A DNA stretch of 63,855 bases, counting the filler, from Collodictyon triciliatum (taxonomy: Eukaryota), in NCBI GenBank assembly GCA_043381765.1. It is 8 parts of 8 records of this genome, joined end to end, with 100 filler letters (N's around TTAATTAATTAA, not from the genome) between each part and the next. Parts side by side here need not be neighbours in the genome. Positions count along the whole stretch, not along the records: positions 1 to 9,477 come from JBHJMP010003005.1; positions 9,578 to 19,030 come from JBHJMP010003006.1; positions 19,131 to 28,582 come from JBHJMP010003007.1; positions 28,683 to 38,134 come from JBHJMP010003008.1; positions 38,235 to 47,681 come from JBHJMP010003009.1; positions 47,782 to 57,226 come from JBHJMP010003010.1; 2 more parts are not named here. The stretch is one strand, 5' to 3'. The position numbers and the translations under genes are program-made. This document shows positions 202 to 56,500 of this stretch, one piece after another. Position 1 is the first letter of the stretch. Every line of letters begins with the position of its first letter. The notes beneath the pieces were generated by a model. The model was not told where the DNA came from. It did not search any database and saw only the letters and a program-made list of their open reading frames with translations.

Positions 202-3200
202 ATGGCTCAGGTCAGTTTCACGAGCGGAGACGAAGATGACAACGTCGTGTTGGATGAACAGCACGACGAAAACTACGAGCCTTCATATACGGGTTTACTT
301 ACTGACTTCGTTATATCATATACGCCTGAAATGATTGCAAAGTAACCAGGATGGACAAGAGAATCCCTCTTACAAACAAACGCGCATATACACAATGCTG
401 CTGTTATTTTTTTCCTTTATTCGATTCAAAGACAATGCTGCTGTTATAATAGAAAAAGAGACTAATTGTTTGTGTATTTTAAAAAAGAGATATATTTTTG
501 TCACAAACTATCTTATATCATCAATAAGCTTAACCCCACTCGCGTAAATAAATAGAGATAATCGAGTATGCAAAGTGGCTAGGGATGGACGTTGATGCAG
601 ACAAAGATTTGATGTGGATTGCTCGAGAGGGGCTGAAAGCACCACTTCCAGAAAACTGGAAGCCATGGTTTGTTTTGTGATTCGATTGATATGAGATAGG
701 TCGTCAATCCATCAATGTAAACTAAATGAACAACATGTTATATATTCCAACGAATGCAAATATAGATATGTATTCTTCATCCTTGTATTAAACAAAGATA
801 TGCCGACTTTTATTCCCCATTAGAATTTCTTTCTGGAGTCTTGCTTTCTTTTATTAAAATTGGATGTGATAATCTGTAGCAAAACAAAGACGGGTGATGT
901 TTATTACTTCAATTTTGCTACTGGGGAGAGCCTTTGGGACCATCCATCCGACGAATACTATAAAAAGATATTCTCTACTGAAAAGAAAAAGAAAGAGGAA
1001 AAGGAAAAGGAAAAGGAAAAGAGTCACGACAAAGGGGCATTAAAGCCCAAAAAAGAAGCAGAAGGAAAAGTTTTGCAAGGGGTGAGTATTTTACTTTTCA
1101 TACATGCAAGTATAAACAAGGATAGCTGCTGAAAAATATATAATTTTCGGTATTCAGAGTGCATTTTGCCATATTTTATTTCAAACTGAAATACCTCGAG
1201 TAGCCAATAGCACCTGCAGCTGCATGCTAATTTCTAATCAAATGCATTTTGACACTTTGAACAATAAACAATGTCTAATAACCAACATTTTTTTTTTGTT
1301 GTTGGTTCTAGGAGCCTGAATCATCTAAACTATCAAAGAAATTCAAAAATATTGAAGCTGAGCGAAACTCTGAGGATAAGCTGACCAAAATTCAAAGGTG
1401 AGCTTAAGAGGCCCCTTCCCCTCCCTACTTTATACATATGTCGTCGTGTAAATTCACGCATGATTATTCCTTTCCTTTGGTGTGTTCTTGATTAGGCTGA
1501 GTAACCTTTTTTTTTTTTTTAGAAATATAAAGAAACATACAGGTCACTTACTCTCTAAAAACAACTTAAACCCATTTGGTTAGCCTTTTTTCTTTTTCAT
1601 TCATTTTAAATATTCTTTTGTTCCAACAGTCCTGCATCCATTCCAGCAACTTTAGACAAACAAGCACTGGGGAAGCCTGCTGCTATGGGTGTTGGATCTT
1701 TGGGGCTCTCTAAAGGAAGTATGTTAAACCCAGTTAAGGTACCTATAGGATTGCCATCAAATGTAAGTGCCAAAACTGGTTCTGGAGAGTCAATCTCTCC
1801 ATCAGACAAAGTTGGAGAAGCAAAAAGAATTGATGCCGATACCTTCAAAGTGACAGAATCTAAAACATCACAAAGTATATTCATAACCAATCCAGAAAAT
1901 GAAACTCCATCCAAGATAGAATCAAATACGAGCCCACCGAGCAGCGCATCCTTGAAAATTAGTACGGAGGAAGAGCGGATTATCCGCGACCAATTACGTA
2001 GCAAAATGGAAGAAAAAGTAAGGAAAGAGCTGGAGCAGGAAATGAAAATAAAAAGACAGGAATGGGAAAAAGATGAAAAGGCATCATACGACCGAATTAT
2101 GGCTGAAAAAAAGAATGCATGGGAAAAGGAAGCACTTGAGAAACAGCAAGATTATGAGGAACGTCGGAATGCATACTTGTCAAAGATTTCTGAACTAGAG
2201 TTGAACGAAGCTGAAATTCGAGAGCGAAAGACGAAGCTTGAAAGGCAAAGTGAAAACCTGTCCTTAAACGAAGTTGAGCTCAAAAAAAGAGAAAATTCCT
2301 TGAAGGAGATTTCAGAACAACTCAGAAAGACTCAGGAAGATGTGGATGATTCAAGATTGCATGCATTTTCGGAGGCGAGAACAAGCCATTCTGCCAGCTT
2401 AGAGGAGTTGAAACGAAAGCACGATGGAGAAATATACCGTATTGAGCAAGACCATAAGATGAAACTGGAATCTATGCAAAAAGCCCACCGCGAAGAACAA
2501 GAGAACTTATATGGCTTGCTTGAGAATACCAAAAGAGATTTATCCGATAATATTGCTCGTTTAAACAAGGAGAAAGAACACGCATATTCATTAAGGGCGC
2601 AATTAGAAGAAGAAAAAATCCGCCTCGAGGCTCAAACCATTTTGATTCGAAAACAGAAGGAACAAGAGGGACACCTGTTATCAAAATCGCATGAACTCGA
2701 AAGCAAAATAATTCAAGTATCATCTCGAATCGAAGAGGAGCAAACAAAACTTGACTCCGAACTTCGAAGACTATCCACAGAGAATATGAGAAAAAAGGCG
2801 ATGCTTGAACGAAACTTGAGAGATTTAGAATCTGAATCTGAAAAGACAAAAGATAAATTGGAAGAATACAGAAGCTCCATCGAACTTCAGACCATGGAGC
2901 AGAAAAAGTTACTTGACAAATATAAAAAGGAGACTGAAGAGTTTAATCAAGACCGAAGCCGGCAGAAAGAATTGGCGGAGGCAAAGCACAGAAGAGAACT
3001 GGAAGAGATGAATAGGAGGCATGAGCTAGAAAAGGAAGATCTACTAAAACAGTTTCGAACAAACATTGAGTCTGACTTACAAACACAATTCAGTTTAATC
3101 CGATTGGAGGAGGAAGACAGATACTCTCGAAAACGAAGTGATTTATTGAAGGAGTATCACAAGAAGTTTTCTGACATTGAAACAAAGGTGGAATATGAAG

Positions 3201-12500: not shown

Positions 12501-13817
12501 GTATTCATGTTTGTCCTTAAATTAATTTTTTCCCCTTTATTCGATTCAAGGGAAGGAAGGGGGTTTTTTTTTTTAAATTCTGACGTAACTGTATGCGCCA
12601 TGGATCAATTAATTAATTTATTATTTAATAGATATGACAAAGCTCTGGAGTGCTATCACAAATCGCTGGAAATTACAGTGAAAGTATTAGGAGAAATACA
12701 CCCTGATGTTGCCACTTCATATAATAACATTGGAGTCGTTTACCGTCGATATGAAAAGTATGTTTTATTAATATCTATGTATTTATGTTTATCCCTAAAA
12801 CTTATTATTTAATAGATATGACAAAGCTCTGGAATACTACCACAAAGACCTTGACATTACACTGAAAGTGTTTGGAGAAATACATCCTGATGTCGCCACT
12901 TCATATAACAATATTGGGATGGTTTACAATGACCTCGGAAAGTATTCATTTATGCATTTATGTTTACTTTGTTAATTCCTACATTAACTCAATATTTAAT
13001 AGATATGACAAAGCCCTGGAATACTACCACAAATCACTTGAAATTCGACTGAAGGTGTTTGGAGAATTACATTATGATGTTGCCACTTCATATAATAACA
13101 TAGGACTTGTTTACCGTCGACTTGAAAAGTATGTTTTATTAATATCTATTTTTTTATGTTTATCCCTAAAACTTATTATTTAATAGATATGAGAAAGCTC
13201 TGGAATACTACCACAAAGACCTTGACATTACACTGAAAGTGTTTGGAGAAATACATCCTGATGTTGCCATTTCATATAATAATATTGGGATGGTTTACGA
13301 TGACCTCGGAAAGTATTTCTTTTTTGTATTTATGTTTACTATATTTATCCCTACTTTAACTTGTTATTTAATAGATATGACAAAGCCCTGGAATACTACC
13401 ACAAATCACTTGAAATTCGACTGAAGGTGTTTGGAGAGATGCACCCGGATGTTGCTACTTCATATAATAATATTGGAAACGTTTACTATGGCCTCGGAAA
13501 GTCTGATGAATTTAATTATCTATTATTATGTCTATCATTTAATTAACTTATTATTTAACAGGCATGAGAAAGCTCTGGAGTACTACCACAAAGACCTTGA
13601 AATTACGATGAAAGTGTTTGGAGAGAAGCATCCTGATGTTGCGATGTCATACTACAATATAGGTGGCCTATTCATGAACCAGGAGAAATACCAGGAGGCT
13701 CTGGACATGTACCAAAAAGCCAACATGATTTTCAAGACTGTCTATGATGCAGACCATCCTCATACAAAGCTTTCAGAAAAGCAAATGATGAACGCACAGA
13801 AGAAGCTGACCCAATAA
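9578..13817 (+). CDS. NACHT/STAND NTPase + TPR-repeat protein (NPHP3/TEP1-like, NLR-like), 5'-truncated at the contig edge (paralog A)
   Basis: Walker A GAESGIGKST, IYHFVGCS, Walker B VLVIDAFNQL, GHPLYLRIVLDELR, SRIGLHENEL, RYAFSHQLL; then eight kinesin-light-chain-type 42-aa TPRs (YDKALEYYHKSLEI..HPDVATSYNNIG) and stop at 13817. Confidence 0.9.
10099..10150 (+). mobile_element. Micro-retroposon copy 4 (16-nt insert) with perfect 18-bp TSD
   Basis: aatatagtaagtttaaat + tcgaataaaggaaaaa + aatatagtaagtttaaat; intronic. Confidence 0.85.
12172..13817 (+). repeat. Tandem exon-intron array: seven 126-nt phase-2 TPR exons plus terminal exon
   Basis: Exons 12172-12297, 12354-12479, 12632-12757, 12816-12941, 13003-13128, 13187-13312, 13375-13500, 13562-13817; the introns also resemble each other. 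Confidence 0.9.
12520..12619 (-). mobile_element. Micro-retroposon copy 5, longest (~80-nt) insert
   Basis: ttcccctttattcgattcaaggg... inserted between aattaattt repeats; paralogous introns 12758-12815 and 13129-13186 lack the insert. Confidence 0.75.
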
Positions 13818-14479: not shown

Positions 14480-15570
14480 CTCATTATATTCCTTTCATCC
14501 TGCGCGAAATGTTTAAGGATTTGACCTCGAATCGCAGGTCATCTTTTGCATGGACGCTACTGGCTGCTGTTTGGCTGAAGAAGTAGATTGTAATCAAAAA
14601 TTATTTACTGCACATTGGCCTGTAGCCTAGGTCTTTTGATTGTATGAGAGAGGCAAGGCGAGGTTTATTCTCTTTCACAGTTTTATCATGTGTAGTAATC
14701 TTTTCTATGCTAGGTTTCTACAGAAGCTTTGCTTCACGTGTTTGTGTCCCTGGAAAAATAAGCATGCTTGTCTAATATCACTTTGTAGTATATATATTTT
14801 TATTCACGACAGACTTAGCAGTTGGAGCCCGTGCCAATAATCTACTTTGTAGTGTATATCCCTACTAAATCTCGGAGTTTAGTGTACAGCCAGCTTTGTA
14901 TCCTTTGCAGGAATTGGCACAAGTGATTCATTATATCCAACAGCACACATATGTGGTGACATGTTTCATGAAGACGCAAACTCGTTTATTTGTTTGAAAA
15001 TTATTTACATTTCTGTGATGTGCTTCTCTCTTTCATATAAGATTACTCTCTTTTCTCTCCATGACACCCTCGCTGATTTTTATTTTTATTTTCGACTTTA
15101 CTTTCTTGTTTTCAAATCACAATATCTACACTCACAGCTCACAAAGTTGTTTCCTAGTAAGCCTTTTTCAAAAAAAATTAATGTACTATATATAAGTCTC
15201 TCCAGAATAATATGTCATTTAAAAAGCTCATTGAAGTATCAATATCATTTTGGTAATGCATGCATAAGAGTTGCTTTTGCCGCACAAGCGCTTGATGATA
15301 ACAGATTATTTGGTCATGTGTTTGTCTTGCTGCTTCATTTGAACAGTGCACATCAAGGTTGTCCTCTGTCCACTTGCCACCTTTTTGTCTTTTGCTTGGA
15401 ATAGTTGACGATATTTTTTCCATCATAGCAAGTATCGCCCTCTTACCTCGTAATTGTGTGGTAATATGAGCTGTAAAGTGGAACTTATCCCCAGAAAAAG
15501 AGACCCAAACTTTCATTCGGGTAAATTGTGTCCCTAACGTTTGCACATAAAGCGTGGTGGTTTTTATCAT
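14480..15570 (-). mobile_element. Decayed non-LTR retrotransposon (LINE) remnant, same family as 47782-49093
   Basis: Reverse complement of 14480-14730 aligns by eye to 48830-49093 (e.g. aaacctcgccttg..ctcat..aagacc.agg.tacaggccaa; agtagcgtccat.caaa; tgaaaggaa). ORF 15178-15570 has TLGTQFT..QLRGKRAIL, resembling a post-RT thumb region. The upstream extent is uncertain. Confidence 0.7.
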
Positions 15571-18500
15571 TCTCCCCCCTTTACCTTCATGTGTTTATGT
15601 CTTCATTTAACGCATATTTTATTGCACTATCGTATTTTCTTCCTTTTTCTTACGACCATATGTACTGTGCATCCAGCCATGATTGTTCCAGACGTTTAAT
15701 TTACCTCATTACGCTTTCTTGGATTGCTTCTGGTAAGTCGCTCTCATTTCCTGATTGTTAAATTGATATGACGACCTTCTTTTATCATATTCCACCGCAC
15801 TTTATTTCGTTCTGATTCATATTCAATATTTTTGGTCTTGTTAAAATAGGGCCTTCAAAATCAAGTAAGTAAGCAAAATTAATTCATAGACTTTTGCTAT
15901 AATAGAAACAACAAATGGTTTCCCTTTCATGATTAGCAATCACTGCGCCAATCATGTCATTCTCTTTTTTTTAAAAAAAATCGCACAGATATATGTATAG
16001 ATAGAGATATCATTCACAATATATATATATACGAATGTAATTTTTTCAGGCTGTGAGTCCTTTTCGTTGCCCAGCAAGAGGTTGTCAGCTTGTATACTCA
16101 AGTTTAAAAAATATTGGTAAATAAAACCATTCACCCTCATCGGTTCTACTTTTAACAGAAAATAATTAAATCTACGATGATTATGATTCAAGCAAAAACT
16201 AAAATAGCATATGCAATTAAACGTAATGTTTCAAAAATAATTATATTGAAAGAAAAGGCGGTATGTTTTAATTGTTAAATATATTCCAATACAAAATTGT
16301 GCATAAAAAGTTGCTATCAAGTAAAACTTTCCTATCTGCCCAGTAATCATATGAATGGTCGTTCAGGGCACACCCTTCCCACGACATCATCAGGCTTGCC
16401 ATTAAACCTTAAAAAATCAGAGCAATTAACATATGCTTATATACTTTGGCACTTAGGACACATGCATATAAAGAAAAAAAAGGTTATGCGTCTCCTATTG
16501 CATCTAATATTATCCATTGAAGTGTTTCTCAAGACATACGTATCATCTATTATATCATCTCTTATAATTCTATTAACGAAAAAGGTATGACACTATTTTG
16601 TTTTATCTCTTCTCTTTTGCAACTATAGCTTTTGATACATAGCCAAACGGAGGAAGCAAAAAGCATAAAGAAAAAAAAGAAAACTATCGTTCGTGCGATT
16701 TCTGCTCATCAATTCATGAATAAAAAAATCCTAATCAAGTGTGTTTTGCTTGTGTTGAGAATGCTCATCGCCACCCTCTTTTTGCTTCTATGTTGATTAA
16801 TAAAGGCTTTCTGTCGATCTACTTCGGCCTTTGTGTAGTTGTGTTAACGGAGTTGTGTGACTGTACCCCTGAAGCTGAACACTGTTGACTTGATTGCCTA
16901 TGCGTTGTTTGTCATGTATAATTGTACAAATCATATTCTCCCGCTATGACAGACTGGCAATAACACAACCTCATGAATTGACCTTGCCTATAGTTTCCTA
17001 TGCACGACACAACAAACAAAAAACCAAAAAAATCAATGATTCCCATAATAGAAACACGTCGTCTTTATTTTTTATCTATAATTATTTTTTTTTTATTATT
17101 TTTCATCTTTTTTAGCTCACTTTTCTTTGCTCATCTACACTTTTTTGTTGTGCTTTTTATTGGAGTAATTAACGTGAGTTTTAATGCTGTAAAGTCATGA
17201 GATAATATATCGATATAATCCATTTATAAACGATATCACCATTATATATTCACAAAAATGATAATTATATTATTGCACTATTTATCAATAACTAACTCCA
17301 GAGAAGGCTGGCGCAAAACACAGTAAGTAGCAATTTATCAAACTTCTATCCCACTGCTTATATTGCATATTATGGAACAGATCCGCATAGTTATCCATAA
17401 AACATACCTTCAAGTCAACTAAATCTGTGAGCATATTATTTTTGGCATATCCTAATAATAAAATTTCATATAAAAACATCTTTATGTAAAAATTATAATA
17501 TGCTAAACAATAACATTCTACAGCCCCTTCATAGTATTACATATCTAAGCACAACCGCTCTTAATCAAGCTCAAAGAAACCGGAGTAGGTACCTGGAGTG
17601 AGTGTTTCTTCACCAAATACTTTGGTATTTCCAAGAAGCACCGTACATGACTTCCATCTCCACATTCAATATCGTCGACTTAGGCGAAAGACTATTTTGA
17701 TGCCTTAGGCGATTACAATAATTTCTTATAGTCTCATCATGTCCGTCATCATTCAAGTATCGATGCATATTCGTTATGTTTGGATATGTGCATTAGAATA
17801 TAGTCAATAGAAAAAAAACTGACTCAATACCAAAAAATATATGTTTAGCAAAATAATTAATTTTAACTTGATAAATACATCAGTAATTGAACGAAAAATG
17901 ATATAGTGAAACACAAAGACATCAGAAGATTAAGCAAGACAAAAAGACCAAAGTATGTCTTCCAGTAAAAAAAAATATAAAAATAGAAAATTTTAATAGA
18001 CTCAAAAAATCATTACATGATGTTCTCAACATAACATAAAATACCCACTGTTAATAGCAAAAAGATATTCGGTTGCCATTATAATACTATCAAGTCATAC
18101 CCGCTCAAGCATACACATATTTGGGCCAAATACTGCAATAAAAAATTCACCAAAATTTTATCTACACTACGTATACATACAATATTAACTATCGACTTGA
18201 CGCTATATGAAGCAAAACTCTCGGAAGTATTAAATGCATGTTTGAAAGGCTGCTCATGGGCTTAACTTGAGCCCAAGGATATTCGAAAACTATTTTTAAT
18301 CGTGCTTTCGTCATTAAAGGATAAAAAACTCATCCCTCCAATGCTTCAAAATTTTTATTTACCAGATAATCAAACTCAGCCCTTTAAAAAATTAACAAAT
18401 ATATCAAATATAACACAGGTTCGATAAACAAGACTTTATGAACATTTTCTTTCTAGTAAAATTTGCCTTTATCATTTTCCTGTAAGCCATCAATCACTAA

Positions 18501-19130
18501 GGTCAATATGTAGTAGATAAAGTAATATAAATCATTCCTCAGGCACCAAAATTAGATATTCAATTTCATCAAATTGTATTTTTTTTAACATAATCAAATG
18601 CTAAACATGAATTTCACAAATAAATATATTTCACAAATCATAAATACACTGTTTTATGTATTATATCCATATCGTCACAAAAATTATAATGAGACACGTG
18701 ATTTATTCAACTATTCGATTCTATTTAATTAGTCACTCACAAATGATACAAAATATGATTTTGAGATATCAATAAGCCACTACACACTGCAAGCGTAATC
18801 TCGGTCTTCATTAGCCAACAGTGATAGGACAGCTCAAGCGCGTTCTTTATAAGAGAAGTATCAAAACATTCACACATTGACAGTATTATTGTTCATACAC
18901 GTAAATCAAATCAATAATAATGGTAATGATAATAAATGCATTGGTTAAATGCATTGGTCATAAAACTTACATGACAATATACTTTTTGTTTTTTTAATTT
19001 CTCGTAAGCGCATCCTTATATTTAGCGCACNNNNNNNNNNNNNNNNNNNNNNNNNNNNNNNNNNNNNNNNNNNNTTAATTAATTAANNNNNNNNNNNNNN
19101 NNNNNNNNNNNNNNNNNNNNNNNNNNNNNN

Positions 19131-22100
19131 TCTTTCTCCTTGCGGACCCTCTATTCCGCAGACACACCGTGCAAAGTCCGTGTGTCCTTCCATGACCATG
19201 ACCAAAGAACTAGAGTTGATGTCCCAAATACGGACAGACTTGTCATCACTTGCTGAAGCGAGCCAGTTTTCATCCTTGGGACCTTTCACAGGGCAAATCG
19301 CATTTACAGTGTTTGCGTGTCCCTCAAAGGTTTTAGTCACAGTACCAGACTCGATGTCCCAGACAAGGATTCTTTTGTCTCCGCCTCCTGATATCAAGCA
19401 GTCGACCCCAGGCCGGATGTTGACGTAGCACATAGTGAGCACATAGTGAGAATGTCCAATAAGTACTTTGATGCGGTCGCCTGTAGCCAAGTCCCAAATC
19501 GTAATCGTGTTATCTTTGCTCCCAGATGCCAACCAGCGCTCTCCATTAGGACCCTTTATGCCGGTAACGCTATACACTGGACTGAATGAATCGGATTCTA
19601 AAACTCTTATAACGTCACCGGATAACACATCCCAGATACGAATGGTGGTATCATCGCCGCAAGATGCCAACCACTTCTCATCGTTTGGCCCTTGCAACAT
19701 ATGCACACAACTTATCGTCGCCGAATGACCTTCTAATACCTTGACGATGTTTCCAGTTGCAACATCCCAAAATCGAATCACATGGTCACTGCTTCCAGAC
19801 ACAAGCAATTTATAACCATCTGACATTTCCATGACCTGTAAATCCATTATCCAGCTTTTGGGGATACTAAGTGTTTCTCTAGGGAGCCCAAGATTTATCA
19901 TTTCCATCTGACAATCTTCAAAGCTACAGTTTCCTATCTGCGCATTTGAAAGGGAAGCGCATTTTAAATCAGCTCCAGTAAAATTAGCTCCGTCAAGATT
20001 GGATTGACTTAGGTCTGCATAAGGAATCTTAATCCCTGAAAAGTCTTTGCCTTGCAATGAAATTCCCATGAAATTTAAAATTGATATTGAATACGATGCC
20101 TGTTCAGCTTTCTCTTCGTCATTGATGGAAAGAGCCACAATTTGAAATAATGCCGCTACAATCTTATCACGGTCCCACCCGTCGCTCAGCTTGAGATTCG
20201 TGATGTTTTCTGCGATGAAATTTTGAACCCTTGTGTACTCTGCGGGCTCCTTAGTCACGCCTGCTTTCGCATTGTGATAGGAAATACGGACACAAGCACG
20301 AAAACAAATTGAATGAGTCCAACCGAGGTTCTTTTCGTATTGTTGCTTCATCGATTCCCAAAATTCAACTGCCTCCTTGTGTTGGTTCAACTGTTCATAT
20401 GTTTTATCAACCCATAGACATGCGAGCCACGAGTCCCAACTTCCAAACGAGTGTTTTTCTCCGTATCGCAAAGCAACTGTTTTGCTAAGTTGGATGAATG
20501 CCTCCAATGATTTCTTTTCTTTTACAAAAGTTGCAATTTTTGCCGACTGGTGCCCGTCAGCAAGGGACATGCACGTCCTTGAGGATTTTCTAATTCTACT
20601 AGCTCTCTCAAAATAGTCGACTACTTGATTAAAACTAATAATTTAAATGTCATATAATAAATTAATAAAAGTTGGAGCTCTCAATAAGCAAGTGTTGAGT
20701 AACTTTCAATACTGCTATTATCTACCTGTGCAGTTCGAAATTGGTTCTACCAACATTCTCCAAGGAAGTTGCATAGTCAATATGCTGTTCACCCAGCGTG
20801 CGCTTGCGTATTTCCAGGGTCTTTGTATAACAGTTCAACGCCTCGTGATATCTGAAATGCATGATATTCATTTAAAACTGAGAGAAAGCATACTTTGCGG
20901 TTTTAAAAAAAATCAAAATCAAAGAATTCACTACAAGAAAAGGAAAAGAAAAAGAAAAAGAAAAAGAAAAAGAAAAAGAAAAAGAAAAAGAAAAAGAAAA
21001 AGAAAAAGAAAAGGAAAAGGAAAAGGAAAAGGAAAAGAAATAGAAATAGAAAAAGAAAGAGAAAGAGAAAGAGAAAGAGAAAAAGAAAAAGAAAAAGAAA
21101 AAGAAAAAGAAAAAGAAAAAGAAAAAGAAAAAGAAAAAGAAAAAGAAAAAGAAAAAGAGCCCACTCTTTGAGGTCGTGGTGAATAGTCCCAATCATCTCA
21201 TAGGTAGCTAAAACACTTGGATCATTATCACCCATCGTCTCAGTTAGAATGTGTAAAGACTCATCGAGTAGAGCAAGGGCGTCACGCTCTCTGCGTATGA
21301 ATAAGCAAATTATTATACTTATCTCTTCATCCTTTTCAGCTTCGTTTGAGTTAATACATACTAAAAAAAAAAAAAGAAGAGGTGTATATGTGACTCTACC
21401 TCCCTTGGCATATCAAAGCTTTTGATATATGAGAAAGGACTCGAGCGATGGCGGGGTGTTTCTCACCGAACGTATTTTTTAGTATCAATTTGGCTTTCTC
21501 GTATTGAGAAATAGCTTCTTCATGCCTAAAAGCAAAGTTTAAATGTAAAGTTACATATAGTTTCCTTTATAAAAGAAAATTCATACTTTCTCTCAGCAGC
21601 TAGGACATGTCCAAAATTTTCAAGCGAAACAGCAATCAAAGGATGCTCATTTCCAAGGTTTTTTGAGCGAATCTCCATGGATAGCTTGTATTCACTGACA
21701 GCTTCTGTGATTCTAGAAGTCGTGAAAAATTAAAACTATGCAATTCTATGAGCTAGTATATGACGAATTGATTAATTTGCATTTATTTACCTATTTTGTA
21801 GCAAATAAATATCTCCAAAATGGTCATGAGATTGGGCCATAATTATATTCTGGCCTCCGTATCTTCGAGATCGAGCATCGTATGCGGTGCGATATTCGCT
21901 CATCGCCTCTTCAAACCTATTGTTTTTAAGAATGCAGTGATGACTTTTTTTTTTGAAAAATTTCTTATTCCTCATGATCCATATGTTTCTATGTCCCCTG
22001 GACTTTTGATAGTACCTTTGTTCTCTTTGATACACGTAGCCTTTTTCATCATGAATTGAAGCAATATAGTCATTTTGATCGCTTTGTGTAAGTTCACTGA

Positions 22101-28582: not shown

Positions 28583-28682
28583 NNNNNNNNNNNNNNNNNN
28601 NNNNNNNNNNNNNNNNNNNNNNNNNNTTAATTAATTAANNNNNNNNNNNNNNNNNNNNNNNNNNNNNNNNNNNNNNNNNNNN

Positions 28683-37912: not shown

Positions 37913-39287
37913 CGCTGACTACAAAGCCTCTATAGTGTTTTATCTTTGATAATCTTCTACTTAATTATGTTTTTTGTTTTTTTTGGTTTTTTGTTTTTTG
38001 TTTTTTTGTTTTTTTGTTTTTTTGTTTTTTTGTTTTTTTGTTTTTTTGTTTTTTTTGTTTTGTGTTTTGTTTTTTGTTTTTTGTTTTTTGTTTTTTGTTT
38101 TTTGTTTTTTGTTTTTTGTTTTTTGTTTTTTGTTNNNNNNNNNNNNNNNNNNNNNNNNNNNNNNNNNNNNNNNNNNNNTTAATTAATTAANNNNNNNNNN
38201 NNNNNNNNNNNNNNNNNNNNNNNNNNNNNNNNNNTTTTTTTTTTGTTTTTTGTTTTTTGTTTTTTGTTTTTTGTTTTTTGTTTTTTGTTTTTTGTTTTTT
38301 GTTTTGTTTTTTGTATTTTGTTTTGTTTTTTTTTGTTTTTTGTTTTGTGGAGCGCTGAAATGGAGGCATAGACAAGCGACTGCGATGAATACTGTGTGGA
38401 TGGCAGTTGCTTTGGGGGTTTGGTTTTGTGTCAGAACAGGCTTTTTGGGGGCGGTTTGCCCCCAGCCTGGTAGGAGTGATTTGCAAAGGGAGTGTGGGTT
38501 TGTGGCACGGGAGAGCGATCGGCTTGTCGGCTTGGTTGGCAATGAGGACATCCATGGCGAGATTATTCTTCAGCCCAACGAAACCAAAGAGCCCAAGAAA
38601 AAAATAAAAGGGGCGCAAATTAAAGTGTTCATGAAATGGGCGCCAGTGGGTGAGTTGTGTCGCAACCTCATTTCGACCCTCATGTCTGCAAACAACCAGT
38701 TTTTTGTGTTTGTGTGTTTGGTTTGGGTTTTGGACTTTGGCTTGGGTGATGTTTTGTGACTTGGAAGTGGATATTGATCTGGACAGTGTGGTGGAAATGT
38801 GGGTTTTACATGGCAAATATCTGACTGGAAATTTATGATCAATTGCATTTCAGTGTAAAAATTTGCCGAATGTGGATGGATGCTTTGGGTTTAGAGTTTG
38901 TTTGTGCGGACTGAAGTGGAATTGGTTTTTCGAATATTTGTATCTCTTATGGAACATCCAAATGTGTATAATCTATACTAAATATGGTATTAATATTTGA
39001 ATTGTTTGGGAAAGTACTTTAGTATTTCAGGAATCATTAGAGTTTCGTGTGGCTGATTCTCACGCTGGAGTTCGCCACAGAAAAATTCTGTTATTTTCTA
39101 GTACCATAAATTAACAGGACATGATATGTTCTGCAAATATTTGTTTTTAGTTTTCTGAACGCATATAATGACCTAATAAATATATTTTCCACATTATTAA
39201 AATAGGTTTGGTATGAGCAAGAGCCCAGGGCTTTTGTCGCAGATACCCTGCTCTTGTGCTTCGTTCGGTAATTGCAATTTCGTTGAT

Positions 39288-42200
39288 TTATTGCCTTGAA
39301 GCCACTAGTGCTTTCCACTCTGCAGTTTTCTCCTCGTTCTTCTCCACGACTAAACCTTGCTCGTATAGATGAGCCATCCACTCGGCTTGAAAACGCGTGC
39401 ACTTTCCAGCCTCGCAGAATCGAATGAAATCCTCATCGCTCGATATGGCCCCAAGAGAAAAAAGAATATGCTTATTGTCATCACCCAAGCACACGGTATT
39501 TTGAATATTGATATCTCCTCCAATAGTACGAATGTCCTTCCATTTCTCTTGGGAGCCGTCACTTTTAAGAGGCAAGTTCATCGAAAATCTCTTTGCATCA
39601 AAAACGCTGGTGAGTGATGCAAGCACTCTTTGCGGTTCGTCTCTAGACACCAAATCTACATCGCCGTTCACTACCAAATTGTCTTTGGATAATGTGTGCA
39701 ACAGTGTTTTGCTTTGAATGTCATAAATGAATATGTTATCTTTACTGTCCGCGATTAGAAACCAATTTTCTTTGTTGGGTCCACGAACGGTACACAAAAA
39801 TCCGCTTTTTGTCCATTCTTCGAACTCACAGCCACCTGATTCCATTACATCCCATATGCGAATCGAGTTGTCGCCACCACCAGATACTAAGAATTCCACA
39901 CTATTCGGGCCTTTGATTGGACAAACAGACTTAACGGAGCCAGTGTGGCCCTCCAGCATTTTTACTTGAGTTCCCGTCTCCAAGTCCCAGATTCTCACCT
40001 TCTTGTCATTACTTCCAGATGCCAACCAGCTCTCACCATTAGGCCCGCGAACTTGGCAAATGCTCCAAATATGGCCAGATGCCCCTTCAAGGATTGCAAT
40101 ATTTTCTCCGGTTTCAACGCTCCAGAGGCGAATCGTCTCGTCACTACTTCCCGACGCCAACCAGTTCTCACCATTTGGTCCGCTCACAGAGCAAATAGAC
40201 CAAATAAAATTGGTGTGGCCTTCAAAAACACGAACCCGGGTCTCGGAGACCAAATCCCAAAGAATGATTGTATTGTCTCTTCCACCAGATGCCATCAAGC
40301 TTTCTCCATCAGAACCTTTTACACTGCAAATACTAAAAACAGTGCTTTTATGTCCTTCAAGCGTTCTGATTTGGTTTGCGGTCGCAACATCCCAAAGCCG
40401 AATTGATTTCCCCTCACTTCCAGAAGCCAACCAGCTATCACCGTTTGGGCCCTTAATTCCGCACACAACAGTCACAGAGCTTGTGTGTCCTTGCAATGTA
40501 TTGATTTGGGTTCCGCTAACCACATCCCACAAGCGAATGACACGACCTTCACTACCTGATGCCAACCAACATTCTCCATCAGGGCCTGGAACATAACATA
40601 TACTACGTACTGCATTTGTATGACCCTCCAGAACCTTCACAACATCGCCAGTTGACAAATCCCAGATCCGAATGGTTTTGTCACCACTGGCAGATACCAG
40701 GCAGTGCTTCCCATCTGGCATAGGAATAGTACATACACACCTTATGGAATTTGTGTGCCCCTCCAACTTTCGAACAGGTAATCCCAAAATTATATGCTGC
40801 ATATTTGAGTGACTGAAATCACAATGGCCGAGGACTGAGTTTGATAAGTTGACTGAATCCAAATTAGCTTTTCCGAAATCCACACCGTCGAGGACCGAAC
40901 CACTCAAATTTGCCCGCGGGATTTTAATGTCGCGAAGATTCATCCCTCCAAATGACATATTCATGAAATTAAGAAAAGATATCGATATGGAGGCGCTTTC
41001 AGATTTGCTTTCATCTGAGCAAGATGCAGTGATTATCTCGTACAAGTATGAAAAAATCTCGAACGAATCCCAAACAGGCTGAAATGTCGCACTAGGAAGT
41101 GTTCTGGTTATAAAATCTTTCACAGATGTGAACTCAATAGGCTCCATGACGTTTCCAGTGTATTTGGAATGTAAAGATAACATCCTACAAGCACTGAAAG
41201 TCCTTGGGTGGACATGCCCAAGCTTTTCGATAAAAATTGACTTCATTTGCGTCCAAAATATCATGCACTCATCATACAAGCCCTTCTTGGCATACAATTC
41301 GTCAATTTCCATTGCTGATGACCACACCCCTGCATGCTCATAGGAGTATTTTTCTCCGAAAAGATGGATTAGTTTTCTGTTCAAATAAACTGCAACATCA
41401 GATTCGTTATGATGCAAGGACATCTTCTTTAGTTGCCCAATCTGAAGAAAATTATTGAATGACATGGGGGTGTTGGTTGTTATCCTAATCGTAGTAGACT
41501 CTTTCAAAAATTCAATAACTTGATCGACCCTACAATTTTTAAGTTTTGAAAAAAAATGAAAAATGAAAAATGAAAAATGAAAAATGAAAAATGAAAAATG
41601 AAAAATGAAAAATGAAAAATGAAAAATGAAAAATGAAAAATGAAAAAAAAAAAGAAAAGAAAAAAGAAAAGAAAAAAGAAAAGAAAAAAGAAAAGAAAAA
41701 AGAAAAGAAAAAAGAAAAGAAAAAAAGAAAAGAAAAGAAGAATGGAAATTACAAGTAATAGAATACCGTTTAAGCTCCATGTTTGTGCGTCCGATGTTTT
41801 CTAAAGCCGTAGCAACATCGGGGCTATGGACTCCTTGAGTTCTCTTACGAATATCCAACACTTTGGAATAGGCAGACAGGGCCTCGAGATACCTTATACG
41901 CAAGGATTCTGTTAAATAATTTTTCCCTTTATTCGATTCAAGGCCTGTTAGATCCATATATATATACTGAAAAATGAAAGAAGAAACAGGGTTTACTTTT
42001 TAGATTTATGGCTTAAATCTCCAATCCTTTCGAAACTCATGATGACTTTTGGGTGATTTTCTCCCACCGAATGCGCCATGATTTCAACAGTATTTTTAAA
42101 ATAGTCTATTGCAGTCTCCGTTCTGCACATGATATCTGGGGTCAATGGAAATGATAAATGATAGAAATCTTAGTGTTGTCGAAATGAAAACTTACTCGCC

Positions 42201-45200
42201 CATAGCTTCATGAATACCAGCGGCATCGAAGCATATGGAGCCGATTAACGGGTGAGCTTTCCCGAAAGAATCACGAGATAGTTCGAGAGCTTTGTTGATG
42301 TGCTCGAGAGACTTGGCGAAACTATATTCAAAAACAATAGCAAGGAGTTTAGGAAAGAGTATGTCGAACAATTTTAAAGTAAATGTATTTCCTACCTCTT
42401 CTTGGCCAGTTCAAATTTGGATATATTCAAATAACATGACGCAATGAGTGGATGGTCCTGGCCAAGAAATTTAAGGCGAATTTCAAGAGACTTCATGAAA
42501 TATGAATATGCTTCGTCGTACCTAAGTGTCAAGGTATGGTCGGTAAAAATGCGTAATTAAAATTGAGTTTTTCTTTCCAAAATCACTTACGATTGTCGAG
42601 CCAAATGCACGCTTCCGAGGTAATCGTAAGAGCCCGTCAAATTCAAACTCGCCTCTCCATATAATTTCATCCTCAAATCGTATCCTTTTTGAAGATGGAC
42701 AATAGCTTCATCGTTTCTATCAGTTTTCATTAGAAGCCTTTATCATTATTAATTACAGAAATCATAAATTATGAGCAAACTTGTTTTGTTTGTAGAGTAC
42801 GAATCCGAGTTCATCATAAATTTCGGCTAATTCTTCATCCTCCTCGATTATGCTGTGCAGTTTAACCTCCAAGCATTTAGAGAGCCATCTAATTGACTCT
42901 TCCCAACTATATTAAATGAAACTATTAGTGATATTGAAGGAGCATGAATAGATTTCAATTTTATGTGCTTAGTATTGCATCAGAAGGAAAAAATCATACT
43001 TTAGCATATTTTTATATACTCGAGCCAGTTTCAAGAAATCCAAGCTCTTTTCATCTCCATATGTTCTCTTTGATATCCTGTGGGAAAGGATAGTAATAAG
43101 AAAGGAATTCTCATACGACTCCAAGAAGAAATCGACCAGTAAGTCTCCCACTTCATTCAGTGATTTTACCAAAGATCTATAAATTTCTTTGTAATTTCCA
43201 ACACCCTTTTCATGTAACACTCTCCAGTAATTGAAAAATTCGTATTTGTGTCTCCCACGAAGCATCTTGGTTACAACATATTCTTTCTGAAGATACTCTA
43301 AGAGGGTCTCGAAGCATCCACCCGAGCACAATTGGAAACATATCTCGGCAACAACTTCATCAACATCCTCATTCTCAGAATATTGGCCCACGAGCCACAT
43401 GCCATACTCCTTTTGAGCCTCTGATTTTGAAATTGACTCTGAAAAAAACACCTGCTGAACAGTTTGCATTAAGAGATGGTGAAAATACATGTATCGACCA
43501 TTCCTTACAAACAAGGACTCAGTTAGTGTAAAAAAGAATGATTTCCATGAGGCCATGGCCAATTTAACACCAATGGTATCCTGAAGGAACTTATCAAGTT
43601 CACTTTCGCTCAGACCAATACGTGAGATATATAGCACTTTCATGGAAAGGTCGACTATGAGCGACCCAGGCGAGTTGTACTTTATCTGCCATCGATTTAT
43701 TATCATCGTATATAACTCCAGTACTCCGTTGGTTTCCAGTAAAACCTTCAATTCTTCATTTAAATTCTCAAAAATCCCATAGACTCTAACCTCCTCCAAT
43801 ATAAGTCGCAGGTACAAAGGGTGCCCTGTATCCTCAATATCATCCAAAATCATATTCAATTGCCCGTCGCTTAATTTTTTGTCGAAACGTCCCAGATACG
43901 ATATAATGCCTTGCTTAATTTCCACATATTCAAGCTTGGTAACAGGTATGTATTCCATTTGACTGCCTTGGATGGAATGAAACGAAGCATGTGTGTCTAT
44001 AGTTGATACAACGAAAGCTGCATTCTTTGGTGTTTTCTTTGGTAACCAAGTGAGCAGGTGAGGGGAAGCAGTCTCTTGTGAAGGTTGTAGCTGATTGATT
44101 GCATCGATTAGAAATACATAATCCTGACCTTTCTTTTTGAACTCGATGTATTTCATCAGCCCATGCAAGGCTTCCTTTTGAAACTCGAGATTATTTTTTG
44201 TCTTTGATTTTCTGGAAACCTGTCTCTCTTTTTTTAGGACGATATTCCAAAATCGTACTGATAAACTTTCCACATAGTTGCTCATGTTTGTGCAGCCAAC
44301 AAAATGATAAATTACATGTAAATTTTTCTTTTTTGACCTCTCTAATAGCTTGACTGTTGCGGCCATGAGCGATGACTTTCCCATGCCCGATTGAGATGCA
44401 AGAACGATTATTTGTTTATCAGGAAATTCTAGTTGTTCATTAATTCGAGTATAGACTTGATTCAAAATACTTTCTCGTCCCTCGAAACCAATCAATCTCT
44501 GCTTCATAAATTGGAAATGCGCCTCTTCTTCTTCGTTTTCATGAATCTGTCTACGGGAGAAGTCCTTTTCAATAGCATAAGATAGATGAGATGTAACCGT
44601 ATCTGAAAATTCGGCTGCTCCTTTGTACACATATGCTGTAAATTTCTCTTTAATTTTGGTCTTTAGCCTTTCTTGCTTTCCGGCACTTTCGTCATTTTCT
44701 GCCTTGAATAAAACCTTCTCCTGTTCATTTTTTGCATTTGCAAGAGCATATTCTTCGTCCCGAAAGTAGAAAAACACCCGACTGCAGAATGGTTTTTCTA
44801 TCAACGCGGCGCATTGAATCTATGATACAGGTCTTATTGACTGGCTGCATTATGATACCACAGCTTATTTATTTTCAATTTTTTTTTTTTATGAAAAAGT
44901 ATCCTGCGATTCTAACCTCATATTCGGTCACGCTAAGCCCAGGAAGACTTGATAAAAAAGGAAACATTTTGTTTGTTTCCGGGTGCCATTGGTTCGGATC
45001 GGACTGGTCGGGTATCCATCCGTACCGTGAACCCAAGTGACAAACAAAATAAGGACACTTTTTGATAGAATCACAGCACCTGATTACCACCTACAAAGTT
45101 CATAAAAAATTTTAATTTCTTTTTGCAAGATGTGTTTGTGTAGTTTATTTTACCCATCCATCACTACTTTCGTGATGCGTCAGTCCCCAACGTAAATCGA

Positions 45201-47342: not shown

Positions 47343-47781
47343 GTTCTCACACAGCCAGTCATACTTATAATGGAAAAAACTTTTTACTTCAAATGATAAC
47401 TCGTGTGTGGATATTACTAGTAGTTCTAAATGGAGTATATATGAATATGTTGTAAGCTAAACCAAAATCATACATATCCGTGCTTTGCAGTCACGAGGGC
47501 ATCGCCAGTGCAGCACCCAATATTATTTCCATCGTATTGTGACTAAGCACATGCATACATTATTATTGAGCAAAAAAAGAAAAAGAAAAAGAGAGAAGAA
47601 AAAGAGAGAAGAAAAAGAGAGAAGAAAAAGAGAGAAGAAAAAGAGAGAAGAAAAAGAGAGAAGAAAAAGAGAGAAGAAAAANNNNNNNNNNNNNNNNNNN
47701 NNNNNNNNNNNNNNNNNNNNNNNNNTTAATTAATTAANNNNNNNNNNNNNNNNNNNNNNNNNNNNNNNNNNNNNNNNNNNN

Positions 47782-49093
47782 CATGCAGCCGAAAGGGTTT
47801 TGGCAAATTGGGATGTGGAAACTCATCACCAAACTGTGTGCAGACTTCAAAACACAGTTGCAACAAAGAACAATCCCACGACCACCTCCAAACACACCCG
47901 AGCCTTTGCTCTCGCGTTGGCAGATTCTGTATACTCACTGCGAAATGACAATACCCCTGAACGAGCCATTGGCAGCAGGACAAATATGCTGGGACAACCA
48001 GAAAGGCTTCTGCATCATCAAACAGATTCACGAAGGTAACGCGGCCACCATCAGAGAAATCTCATTCAAAGAAGATGGCTCATACATCACAACGCCAGGC
48101 TCCATCGTATTCCGCACACAAGATGCACAGCCAACCACAGCCGTCCTGAATAACAAAGGAAAATGGCGCTCACGCAGACCAATCTCATACGACATCCCGT
48201 CGCCATTCTTCTTCCGCCTCAAGAACGAACGCTCGTCTAACGGTGCGCAGTCTATGCAGTTCTCGATGGCTATGGCCTACTCCAAATTCTTTCGATACAA
48301 AATATCGCCGCCGACACCCTACAAAAAGTCAAAACATCAACGATGGGGAGAAACACTGGGCATCACCCACAAACCCCGCTCACCGCGAGCTGGAGACAAG
48401 CACGAATCTCACAAGTCCTTCTAAATCACCGCTCTCTAATGCATAATATCACCAATAGGGAGCTATGGATAGGCACACGCGCGGCAAAAGCTGGCAAAGT
48501 CTCCCAACAATGCACACTTTGCAGCAACGGTGACGAATCCATTGAGCACACATTTTTGCAACGTCCCTTCGCTCAAAACCTGCTCGAAACAGTCGGTGAG
48601 ATTCTTCGACTGACACTCAAGACGGCTGCAACTGTTGGCCCAATCCAGGCGATATTTGGGCCTCTGCAACAGCTGCGTCCAGAGGCAAAACCACTCTGGG
48701 CAGTGACGGGAGACCATTTTCTATGGACTATGTGTATAGCGCGCATATACCCACGCAAAGCAAGACTCAACAACCAGCCACCCATTACTGATAATAGACT
48801 GAATGACTTCATTCAAATCTCTTTTCTCAATAGCTTTCTTCGCCACCTGCACGTTCTCTACTACTCCGACCTTGTGAGAAGAGACATGTGGAAAGAAGCT
48901 GAGAAGGAGATTAAACCTCGCCTTGTATGTCTCATGCAGGCGCAAGACCCAGGGTACAGGCCAAACCGCAGGATGCAATTCCTGATTACCGACTAGTTCT
49001 CCACCACTCGGCCAGCAAGTAGCGTCCATACAAACAGTGGCTAGCGAACCGGCCAGCAGCACCATCCTGCACAACGTTGAAAGGAAGAAAAAA
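47782..49093 (+). mobile_element. 3' part of an L1/Tx1-like non-LTR retrotransposon ORF2 (frameshifted, defective)
   Basis: Intronless, higher GC, C/A-rich sense strand; overlapping ORFs 47783-48424 and 48343-48996 imply a frameshift; zf-RVT-like LMHN..TNRELW..CTLCSNGDESIEHTFLQRPF (last Cys replaced) and downstream LW..R..R..RLN motif; ends in A-rich gaaaggaagaaaaaa. Confidence 0.8.
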
Positions 49094-50788: not shown

Positions 50789-51630
50789 NNNNNNNNNNNN
50801 NNNNNNNNNNNNNNNNNNNNNNNNNNNNNNNNNNNNNNNNNNNNNNNNNNNNNNNNNNNNNNNNNNNNNNNNNNNNNNNNNNNNNNNNNNNNNNNNNNNN
50901 NNNNNNNNNNNNNNNNNNNNNNNNNNNNNNNNNNNNNNNNNNNNNNNNNNNNNNNNNNNNNNNNNNNNNNNNNNNNNNNNNNNNNNNNNNNNNNNNNNNN
51001 NNNNNNNNNNNNNNNNNNNNNNNNNNNNNNNNNNNNNNNNNNNNNNNNNNNNNNNNNNNNNNNNNNNNNNNNNNNNNNNNNNNNNNNNNNNNNNNNNNNN
51101 NNNNNNNNNNNNNNNNNNNNNNNNNNNNNNNNNNNNNNNNNNNNNNNNNNNNNNNNNNNNNNNNNNNNNNNNNNNNNNNNNNNNNNNNNNNNNNNNNNNN
51201 NNNNNNNNNNNNNNNNNNNNNNNNNNNNNNNNNNNNNNNNNNNNNNNNNNNNNNNNNNNNNNNNNNNNNNNNNNNNNNNNNNNNNNNNNNNNNNNNNNNN
51301 NNNNNNNNNNNNNNNNNNNNNNNNNNNNNNNNNNNNNNNNNNNNNNNNNNNNNNNNNNNNNNNNNNNNNNNNNNNNNNNNNNNNNNNNNNNNNNNNNNNN
51401 NNNNNNNNNNNNNNNNNNNNNNNNNNNNNNNNNNNNNNNNNNNNNNNNNNNNNNNNNNNNNNNNNNNNNNNNNNNNNNNNNNNNNNNNNNNNNNNNNNNN
51501 NNNNNNNNNNNNNNNNNNNNNNNNNNNNNNNNNNNNNNNNNNNNNNNNNNNNNNNNNNNNNNNNNNNNNNNNNNNNNNNNNNNNNNNNNNNNNNNNNNNN
51601 NNNNNNNNNNNNNNNNNTTTTTTTTAATAG

Positions 51631-52982
<1,352 letters not shown>

Positions 52983-53342
52983 AAGAACCCCTTTAATTGA
53001 TGATTAATGTGACGGGTCTCTCCTTGAAAGAAGAAGAAAAAAAAAAACGAAGGAAAAAACGAAGGAAAATTCACACTTGTGCTCCTGCTTCTGAAAATTT
53101 TTTTTCTATGTTAATGCGAAGGCCTATTTGCGTTGCCATAGTCTTTTTTATTACTTTTTTTTTTTTTAATAATATTATTATTATCATTACTCTCATTCCG
53201 TTTCAAATGTTTTTTTCTCAACAAGAAAAGATTTTGTTACTGAGGAAGCCCAAAAAAAAGTTGCCTTTTGGTGTGGAAACTGCTTTGCAGACCCGGCCAC
53301 TGCCTTTTCTTTTCTTTTTTTTTTTTTTATCATTTTTATCAG

Positions 53343-53343
<1 letters not shown>

Positions 53344-53426
<83 letters not shown>
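53344..53426. repeat. (ATT)n microsatellite
   Basis: Direct inspection. Confidence 0.95.
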
Positions 53427-53580
53427 GAAGGGACTCTGTCTTTTCAGACAGTAACTTTCTGCGCGTTTGAGTAGTGAGAACCATGCTTCAATTGAACAAA
53501 AGAGTTTTCGCAAGACGAGCCAACTTTCATTGTGCTCCTTTTTACTTTCATTTTTTTCTTTCTCTTCCCAGCACCCGAAG

Positions 53581-56500
53581 ATGAGGTTGTGTTGGGTTCT
53601 GCTAGTGCTGTCACTGTCTCAAACTTCAAAAGCGCTGGTTTTCCCTGTGGACGTCTCTTCGTTCGAACGTAGTTATGTTAAAGTTGTCTCTGACTTTGGA
53701 GTGGGCAGTGATGGAGAAATCGTGGTCGACTTGGAGTTACAAGTTTATTATTCACCTATTCATTCACCTATTCATTCATCTATTCATTCATCTATTCATT
53801 CATCTATTCATTCATCTATTCATTCATCTATTCATTCATCTATTCATTCATCTATTCATTCATCTATTCATTCATCTATTCATTCATCTATTCATTCATC
53901 TATTCATTCATCTATTCATTCATCTATTCATTCATCTATTTATATTCATTTATGAAGTGATTGATTGCTTCACTTGTTTGTACAGAATTCTGAAGGTGCT
54001 CAGAATACCTCATATGTGATATCACTCTTTAGAAAAGAACAATGGGTGAGCTTTATAGCATTCATGTACATACAGCGAAAATTTTATAATTGGAGTGATA
54101 ATAGTTCTTTTCAATATAATATTATGAAATGTAATTCAATGTATTTTTTTGGTAAAAAAGATTTTTTTTAATATTTTTCTTTCACAGTCCCTCATTATGA
54201 TTTTTTTATTTTCCCTAAACCAGGATAAATATTCTCACAAGTTATCAAACCCTGGACATTTATGTTATGCTCCATCCATGATGGTAATTTGAGCCCATCT
54301 CATTTTCTTTTCTCGAGGAAAAAAAAACATTTTAAAACTGTCAGATATGCAGTTTTTTTTTACCAGCGTTCTTCAAAACTCTTATGATACTTTATAATCA
54401 AGAGATACACTCATTTTTTTTTTTTTAGAGATACGAAATTAAATGGAAGACAAAGGTAACTCATAAAATTCCGTGGACTGATTTGTACTACGTGGTACTT
54501 CATGATTGTCTCGGCCCACTTTCAATAAACATTAAGGTAACATGCGTTTTCATTTTATTTCTACGTGTGAAGACGGATAATTTGGTATTTGAATGCATCC
54601 ATGAATCATACATTTGTGTAATTCTCAGTTCAAATATTCCTGAAACTGCTGTTTCACTTTTGCTCCAGTCATTGAAGCAAACATCTGATATTTTCTCTAG
54701 GGTACTGTCCAACTCATGAACCCTCACGGAGAGCACTTGTCGCTTGAAAATATTCCTATTGTTGCTATAGAGTCGTTCCTTTTTTGTTCTTATTTCCTTT
54801 GTTCACTTTACTGGTTTGCAACCTATCAATGGTTTAGGTTTGATTTTTATTTACCCATATTTCAAACTGCTCTATTGTTTGAGGCCTTGAAAAAAGGCTT
54901 TGTAGTTGCTTCTTTGACGGATTTAACCTTTTTATCAAAATATTTTCCATTATCATTAATTTATCTATTTACGAAAAGAAATCAAGTAATTCGGATGCAC
55001 AAGCTACTATCGGTTGGTTTTGGATTGAAGTTTATCGAGTCTCTTATCAATTTGATATACTTTAAGTCAATATCGATGACAGGAAAGGAATGGTTTATAC
55101 TAAGGTTAACATCTGTAATAAAATTCTGAAAAAAAAAGAACGAATATTATTTATCAAGATTAGACAATAAAAATAAAAACTGTTTAAGTCATATGAACGA
55201 TTAACTAATTGCTGCTTCTTTTCCTTGATTCGATTCAAAGAACTAATTGCTGCTTAAGTATATATATTTCAGCGAACGCTAACACTAATAATTTGAAAAA
55301 ATCGAATATATTTCATCATGAATGTTAATTATTTGAAATTATGTAGTATGAGTCGAATTGTCATCGTATCAATATCAGAGACGCTATTTTTTACAACTCT
55401 CTTCCTCATATCCTTGGGATGGACCATCACAAGAAACCGCCTTTCAGAGAGAGAAAAAAATATGCTTATATGTGAGAATTAAAATATATTTGCCACAATA
55501 CATAACATAGCGAGATTATTAAATTTTTTCTCTCATAGGTATTTTTGTGTGTTTCCTGCTTATGGATTTTATGAAAGAAATATGTGATGGAGGCTCTTTT
55601 TGCTATGTGTATACTGTAAGTAAATCAACTAGTTAAAAGTCGAGTATTTAATTTTAATCTGCATAAAAACCTGAGTAATCTTCTGTTTCGTTGAGTATAC
55701 ATTTCCTTCTTTTCTTAAAAAAAATCAGCTAAGCTATCACGGTATTAAGTTCATCGTGTTATTCCTCATTATCGTTTCAATGAATTCAATAATTGAGAGG
55801 CTAAGGATTACTGCTAGGGAACAAGTATTAACTCTATATGTCTATATTTCGTAAATTTGAAGCTTTTGTTGAATTTAAATGCGCATTTTGAACATGAACT
55901 TTACACTTTATTCCTTGACTGCTTTTTTAAAATTATCAGTGGACAGAACACCACACAAGTATTTTGTCCAAACTCAAAATGTTTCGGTAACTATTTCAGA
56001 CATTTGTTTCAGTATAATTCACCATTACATTAGTGGTTATATACATAAAATCATACCAAAAATTTAAAAAAGAACGGGAAACATAGAGTTCAACAAACAG
56101 TCTGGACTCTCGAAAGACAGTTCATATTCCTTTTCATCCAGGCTCTTCCGTTGGGTCTATGTCCTCTATCTCATCATCCCCATATTCATTCTGGTCATTC
56201 AGTCGTCCATCTTAAGCTGGCAGCAGCAGTGGATTGCAATTTTATTAACGCAGCTTCTTTATTTGATGGTATACGTCATGATTGGACAAACTTTCAGACC
56301 GCGCCGGAACAATCGCTATTTCTATGACCAAAGAGAAGCAGAGTATTTTTTTTTTATCATATTACTGTTAAAGAAACATCAGATGCACCTTAGTATCGAA
56401 GAGTCTTATATCGAATGGAGAATGTAAAAGAAATGTAAAAGAAATCTAAATATTATGTTTACTATTGAATATAAATAAATATTCGATATTGATATGTTTT

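Follow-up and report, generated by a model that had tools for sequence, protein, structure and literature searches.

Short inserts in the genome of Collodictyon triciliatum, probably extremely 5′-truncated copies of a LINE 3′ end

What process has scattered a sequence of about 20 nt, with an A tail and target-site duplications, through the genes of the protist Collodictyon triciliatum? The question is raised by a 63,855-base stretch of assembly GCA_043381765.1 (hereafter the window), composed of eight scaffolds, with 61,390 non-N bases and three N gaps internal to scaffolds. In it stand nine copies of (C)TTTGAATCGAATAAAGG followed by a short run of A, four on the plus strand and five on the minus strand (-,+,-,+,-,+,+,-,- for copies 1 to 9). 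These copies are probably extreme 5′-truncated insertions of the 3′ end of a long interspersed nuclear element (LINE), namely one with a zf-RVT-type C-terminus to its second open reading frame (ORF2). The mechanism is a known one; what is unusual is the very short product, with its narrow distribution of lengths, in a little-studied protist lineage.

When the window was searched with the motif GAATCGAATAAAGG, allowing at most two mismatches, eight matches were obtained against 0.81 expected, a number reached by none of 100 shuffled sequences; the ninth copy (24995-25020) carries a 1-base insertion within the motif and was found by direct reading of the sequence. In element orientation, all copies except copy 5 share one layout, i.e., a duplication, 11-21 bases matching ...ACACTTTGAATCGAATAAAGG, zero to six A residues, and the duplication again. 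The insert measures 16-27 nt in eight of the nine copies and 82 nt in copy 5, with lengths matched to the presumed parent (see below) of 18, 21, 20, 11, 17, 15, 16 and 18 nt in the former. The A tail is 2-6 nt long in eight copies, while that of copy 7 merges into an A-rich duplication. Eight of nine copies have a T immediately before the duplication and an A as its first base (T|A), which is unlikely by chance because T and A make up only 31% and 33% of the bases in the window. The initial annotation of this stretch had listed nine copies in both orientations, with inserts of 16-27 nt and once about 80 nt, three of them between perfect long repeats; reading of the sequence upholds all of these particulars, coordinates included.

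The three long perfect duplications are those of copy 1 (392-447, minus strand; 16 bp at 392-407 and 432-447), copy 4 (10099-10150, plus strand; 18 bp at 10099-10116 and 10133-10150) and copy 9 (55203-55255, minus strand; 15 bp). They enclose, respectively, a 24-nt insert of 18 nt of LINE tail and six A residues, a 16-nt insert of 11 nt of tail and five A residues, and 18 nt of tail with one substitution followed by AAAAG. Copy 2 (3544-3596, plus strand) has a short A tail and a 13-bp duplication with one mismatch (longer if an indel is allowed), and 21 of its nucleotides match the parent tail, including an ACA upstream of CTTTG. Copy 3 (3861-3918, minus strand), a GGG variant with an A4 tail and a 16-bp duplication with one mismatch, matches the parent over 20 nt (CA plus CTTTG...) and has one additional 5′ base. 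Copies 6 (24985-25030, plus strand; TTTGATTCGAATTAAAGG) and 7 (34957-34994, plus strand; GATTTGAATAAAGG) have diverged, the former lying within a perfect 10-bp duplication and the latter within a weak, A-rich repeat of 8 bp. Copy 8 (41910-41954, minus strand) is a CCTTG...AAAGGG variant flanked by a 9-bp repeat with two mismatches. The 82-nt insert of copy 5 (12520-12619, minus strand) ends in CCTTGAATCGAATAAAGGGG(A)n between weak, AT-rich repeats of 9 bp; its order is a run of A11, then a C/T-rich stretch, then the LINE tail.

Flanking repeats were scored in a 60-nt frame around each copy and, identically, around 2000 random anchors placed in the window outside low-complexity sequence. Four of the nine copies scored above all 2000 controls and a further four fell in the top 0.5%. 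The score of copy 5, which is among the top 0.5%, stems from something other than its real repeat, and the flanking repeat of copy 8 is no better than chance (0.73 against the controls). Exact direct repeats of 10 nt or more, no further than 130 nt apart, were also listed without reference to the motif. Of the 30 rows obtained, one microsatellite accounts for 13; 5 of the remaining 17 flank the element, including all three repeats that reach 15 nt, so that the longest short-range repeats of the window are those around the copies. In a separate unbiased scan, four of eight non-simple short-range repeat families (D13, D14, D17 and D19) likewise flank it. Overall, the duplications vary between 8 and 18 bp in length, and the presence of perfect and decayed examples side by side points to repeated activity over time.

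With respect to location, copy 4 lies inside a GT..AG intron (10083-10191), for which RNA contigs of sequencing runs X1 and X2 join position 10082 to 10192. All nine copies had been described as intronic; RNA contigs establish this for copy 4, and the remaining eight sit between ORF-bearing stretches, with copies 2 and 3, in opposite orientations, sharing one stretch between ORF-bearing exons. The insert of copy 4 together with one duplication accounts for 34 of the 109 nt of its host intron, most neighbouring introns being 60-97 nt long; in the window, GT..AG introns of 60-109 nt are spliced out in the RNA-like contigs of these two runs. Among the contigs listed from sequencing runs sharing 0.16, 0.13, 0.06 and 0.00 of the window, none bridges any copy, and a metagenome contig of run X3 ends within the left duplication of copy 4, which makes it uninformative on the insert.

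The origin of the motif was sought through 20- and 21-mers matched exactly against public contigs, yielding 17 matches (14 in metagenomes and 3 in prokaryote genomes), with none in the viral contigs scanned. Sixteen of the 17 lie, without A tail or duplication, in ordinary, apparently prokaryotic sequence. Three of the matched contigs, two from Bacteroidota metagenome-assembled genomes (MAGs) and one from a metagenome (L001, L015 and L017), share ...TTTGAATCGAATAAAGGAAAATT(A/G)CC(A/T)TGGCCAGT...; judged from the sequence, these look like chance matches in one conserved stretch, possibly of a bacterial gene, unrelated to the copies described here.

The seventeenth match is a 1157-bp metagenome contig, L006, the minus strand of which reads ...GCTACACTTTGAATCGAATAAAGG(A)10. 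This is the end of a LINE: a 3′ untranslated region (UTR) terminating in ...ACACTTTGAATCGAATAAAGG(A)10, i.e., the same 21 bases as in the copies, with the motif beginning approximately 75 nt and the A run approximately 95 nt past the stop codon of the C-terminal part of an ORF2. That a LINE might end in the motif had been raised in the initial annotation as something to look for, and this one does. The L006 ORF contains ...NRELWIGARVV...CTMCDSGDDSIEHTF... and a CX2C...H knuckle, and shares 61%, 51% and 41% identity, over three segments, with a LINE fragment (47783-48996) in the window itself. The latter belongs to the 3′ part of a related LINE (47782-49092, plus strand) that is cut by the scaffold start and retains two overlapping C-terminal ORF2 frames, at 47783-48424 and 48241-48996, with one frameshift between them. 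The second of these frames matches the Pfam family PF13966 (zf-RVT; E 2.5e-6, 28.5 bits against a cut-off of 27.5), the zinc knuckle that follows the reverse transcriptase (RT) in many LINEs. Since the L006 UTR ends in the motif and the L006 ORF2 resembles the window LINE, the motif is most likely, on this sequence comparison, the 3′ terminus of a LINE family with relatives in the host genome.

Relatives of the encoded protein are few. Neither word-based nor exhaustive protein searches returned a longer or full-length ORF2 relative; the exhaustive search gave 20 matches, of which the relatives (P0001, P0003, P0004, P0007 and P0009) are all short. The other 15, longer matches were set aside, as all fall on query residues ~69-136 and the three checked with Pfam (P0002, P0006 and P0011) are WD40 proteins. 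It was observed separately that a 37-residue stretch of the plus-strand frame 47783-48424 (residues 69-105) scores against the WD40 repeats of many long proteins and is conserved in the LINE relatives P0001, P0004 and P0031; this could be a chance likeness or a captured repeat. P0009 and P0031 extend the LINE protein upstream (...PLKYLGIIFG...LSDVGKV...GGLGLI...) into a stretch which we take to be RT-thumb-like, corresponding to the region just after the RT palm and thumb of an L1-like ORF2, and the C-terminal end of P0031 is nearly identical to that of the L006 ORF. Pfam gave no match on P0001, P0004, P0009, P0030 or P0031, nor did a PDB sequence search with P0031.

The combination of A tail, 8-18-bp target-site duplication and T|A site is the signature of target-primed reverse transcription, and the attribution of the copies to a LINE-type endonuclease and RT, already proposed on these hallmarks, stands. 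Variable duplications, a 3′ run of A and a T|A nick are tied to the apurinic-type endonuclease (APE) of L1-type LINEs; the label L1-like and APE-type given here is a putative one, resting on the zf-RVT match, the duplications and the nick site. Against the fixed 3′ end, the 5′ ends are ragged, as had been noted: relative to the L006 UTR, copy 2 starts three bases further upstream (ACA) and copy 3 two bases (CA), and copy 4 stops seven bases later. These 5′ ends, spanning 11-21 parent-matched nt, would thus be a short nested set and not one fixed end. Random truncation along a multi-kilobase element cannot yield these lengths; synthesis must usually stop within about two turns of the helix.

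We infer the order of events, the type of endonuclease and the cause of the early stop to be the following. The LINE endonuclease would nick the target at T|A, upon which the T-rich 3′ end would find a priming site in the short A tail carried by the LINE RNA. Of the 3′ UTR, the RT would then copy no more than the final 11-21 bases (...ACA CTTTGAATCGAATAAAGG) before aborting or losing its template, and a staggered second cut 8-18 bp away, followed by repair, would give rise to the target-site duplication. Our preferred cause for the stop would be an abortive transition from initiation to elongation, through poor processivity or host interference, from which a rare escape would give a longer product, as in copy 5. 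In introns of ~60-110 nt, anything longer would likely also be selected against, as a second filter. A physical cause was also sought in RNA structure. A small hairpin in the motif had been suggested as a recognition signal for the RT, a suggestion that folding does not bear out: minimum free energies are 0 to -2.7 kcal/mol for four copies and -0.3 kcal/mol for the L006 tail, none better than shuffled sequences. The whole L006 UTR shows no unusual structure (z = 0.32), and an Rfam scan of L006 and the window returned no ribozyme or other RNA family. No cause of the early stop was thus found in structures or ribozymes, and the cause continues to be one that we infer.

Several observations weigh against extreme truncation as the source of the copies. 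The parent with the exact tail is known from one 1157-bp metagenome contig and not from the host genome, and the LINE in the window ends in a different tail (...CAACGTTGAAAGGAAGAAAAAA), only loosely alignable with the motif; a search of the window for further copies of that tail gave one doubtful match, at 30960, without duplication. Protein searches, as described above, returned no full-length ORF2 relative. Four to five copies start exactly at C(T/C)TTG, as would be expected, too, of a template whose 5′ end is fixed, and in copy 5, the sole long copy (82 nt), the 60 nt upstream of the tail do not align with the L006 UTR. Moreover, the lower bound of 11 nt reflects the reach of a motif search, which shorter copies would escape, and a sample of nine cannot separate a narrow peak from a steep exponential fall-off.

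The start at C(T/C)TTG leads to an alternative that we consider unlikely, in which a dedicated micro-retroposon RNA of ~20 nt, with its fixed 5′ end at this sequence, is copied to its end by LINE proteins; the template could be a SINE-like parasite (SINE, short interspersed nuclear element) or a 3′ fragment of the LINE RNA released by a nuclease, by small-RNA-guided slicing or by a ribozyme. The exact start is indeed CTTTG in copies 1 and 9 and CCTTG in copy 8, an indel in the duplication of copy 2 would allow its start to be placed at CTTTG as well, eight of nine copies hold 11-21 templated nt with none between 22 and 80, and inserts of 16-27 nt fall in the size range of small RNAs. However, the LINE-UTR bases CA and ACA carried by copies 3 and 2, and the shorter copies 4, 6 and 7, give ragged 5′ ends; a promoter cannot fit in 18 nt; and neither an Rfam family (on L006 or the window) nor a stable structure was detected. 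Of the two readings offered in the initial annotation, i.e., a tiny non-autonomous retroposon in its own right or systematically aborted LINE insertions, the L006 tail thus favours the second over the first. Yet shorter work is made of capture independent of an endonuclease, whereby pieces of LINE cDNA or RNA would fill chance double-strand breaks through end joining or polymerase-theta-type repair: the very short inserts and the 1-4 unmatched bases at the 5′ junctions of copies 2, 3 and 8 would suit it, but such repair would not yield duplications of 15-18 bp, a T|A site in eight of nine copies and an A tail at one fixed end, making it very improbable. The pattern that would speak against such capture, with 10-20-bp duplications and a TT|AA-type site at most copies, is already apparent in the window.

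It is harder still to credit that the copies are a library or assembly artefact (an adapter, a linker or a chimeric graph path) or else a functional intronic signal for splicing or polyadenylation. The motif does contain AATAAA; however, the copies differ by substitutions and one indel, their duplications have decayed to varying degrees and are site specific in a manner not produced by an adapter, and an independent metagenome contig holds a LINE ending in the same sequence. An intronic signal would sit poorly with both orientations, with a variable position relative to neighbouring ORFs and with two opposite copies in a single inter-exon gap. Extreme 5′ truncation therefore remains our preferred reading. 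A stronger form of it, in which abortive retrotransposition is the main outcome in this lineage, with ~18 ± 3 bases copied before a near-fixed stop, is a tentative proposal that we would rate as doubtful; the stop could then be due either to host restriction or to cutting of the template RNA just upstream of CTTTG, e.g., by small-RNA-guided slicing.

Compared with known systems, the copies resemble 5′-truncated insertions of L1-type (APE) LINEs in their A tail, variable target-site duplication, T|A nick and fixed 3′ but ragged 5′ end, as well as in a 3′ end identical to that of a LINE 3′ UTR. In mammals, the truncation points of L1 range over hundreds to thousands of bases; in contrast, eight of nine copies here keep only 11-21 templated bases, with A tails of 0-6 nt. 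Like SINEs that share the tail of a partner LINE, they occur in both orientations and would be mobilised by LINE proteins through their 3′ end. Unlike SINEs, they have no head, promoter or body, the tail alone being shared, and with 11-21 templated nt and 5′ ends that vary by 10 nt they display neither a transcription unit of their own nor a defined 5′ end. The stable, conserved 3′ stem-loop of stringent-type LINE tails is likewise lacking. In the literature texts searched, with supplements outside the scope of the search, the 14-mer of the motif did not occur, and the listings and abstract openings returned by a keyword search contained nothing on 20-nt LINE stubs.

Copy 5 calls for separate comment. 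U6/L1-type chimeric retrocopies arise by template switching during L1 reverse transcription, and copy 5 resembles them in having a LINE tail preceded by an unrelated stretch ending in A11, an order expected for a chimera because an RT jump to another polyadenylated RNA would give it. Copy 5 is, however, a single case, which the UTR of a sub-family or a nested insertion would fit equally well; it may represent a sub-family in a longer copy, or else be a composite. An unrelated insert of 48 nt (14780-14859, minus strand) ends in ...GTGAATAAAAAT (also given as ...AATAAAAAT) within a 16-bp duplication with one mismatch; the window contains it only once. Another LINE family or an mRNA 3′ end probably supplied this short retro-insert, which with its 16-bp duplication indicates that such inserts are not confined to one template.

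The surrounding sequence is that of an AT-rich eukaryotic genome with short introns (GC 27-39% in 4-kb bins). The scaffolds measure about 9477, 9454, 9453, 9453, 9448, 9446, 3310 and 3120 bases and are joined by spacers of the form N44-TTAATTAATTAA-N44 (9478-9577, 19031-19130, 28583-28682, 38135-38234, 47682-47781, 57227-57326 and 60636-60735); most scaffold ends carry low-complexity runs (poly-A/T, (TTTTTTG)n or (AAACC)n). Among the genes are those of NACHT/STAND NTPases and of WD40 and TPR proteins, together with one ORF that is sulfotransferase-like and a long one encoding a coiled coil. Several of the STAND NTPase genes, which combine NACHT/NPHP3_N with repeats of the WD40 or TPR type, are paralogous and occur on different scaffolds (9673-10086, 19131-20642, 24641-24982, 39288-41999 and 42969-44819). 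The best named relative of a host NACHT protein, at 55% identity, comes from the transcriptome of Diphylleia rotans (EukProt), and in a look-up of the NACHT part with a protein language model, bacterial DUF4062-NACHT clusters came closest. A 12-nt microsatellite, (ATTCATCTATTC)n, of ~16 units at 53750-53950 is open in two plus-strand frames (SIHS/LFIH repeats) and has a smaller relative at 52766-52797. In the bin 16846-17161, the summed contig depth reaches 1412 in a subsurface metagenome run, against less than 25 elsewhere, and many short metagenome contigs terminate at 17064-17103, pointing to a simple or repeated sequence of wide occurrence at this site.

Ultimately, the LINE family concerned has hardly any relatives in databases and belongs to a protist lineage that has been poorly sampled, the mechanism itself being a textbook one. 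If the window is typical, nine copies in 61.4 kb extrapolate to approximately 150 stubs per Mb, most integration attempts of the LINE would end before two turns of RNA:DNA hybrid have been made, and the genome would provide natural data on the sites and causes of abortion in target-primed reverse transcription, a step for which most work is otherwise done in vitro. Stubs that match their own duplications in length, and are too small for repeat finders to report, may be overlooked widely. They also spread AATAAA motifs across genes, and each adds 35-45 nt to an intron of ~60 nt, which would make them a steady source of intron growth should they indeed be abortive insertions; blocked events of target-primed reverse transcription could in that case be counted in the genome as in a natural record.

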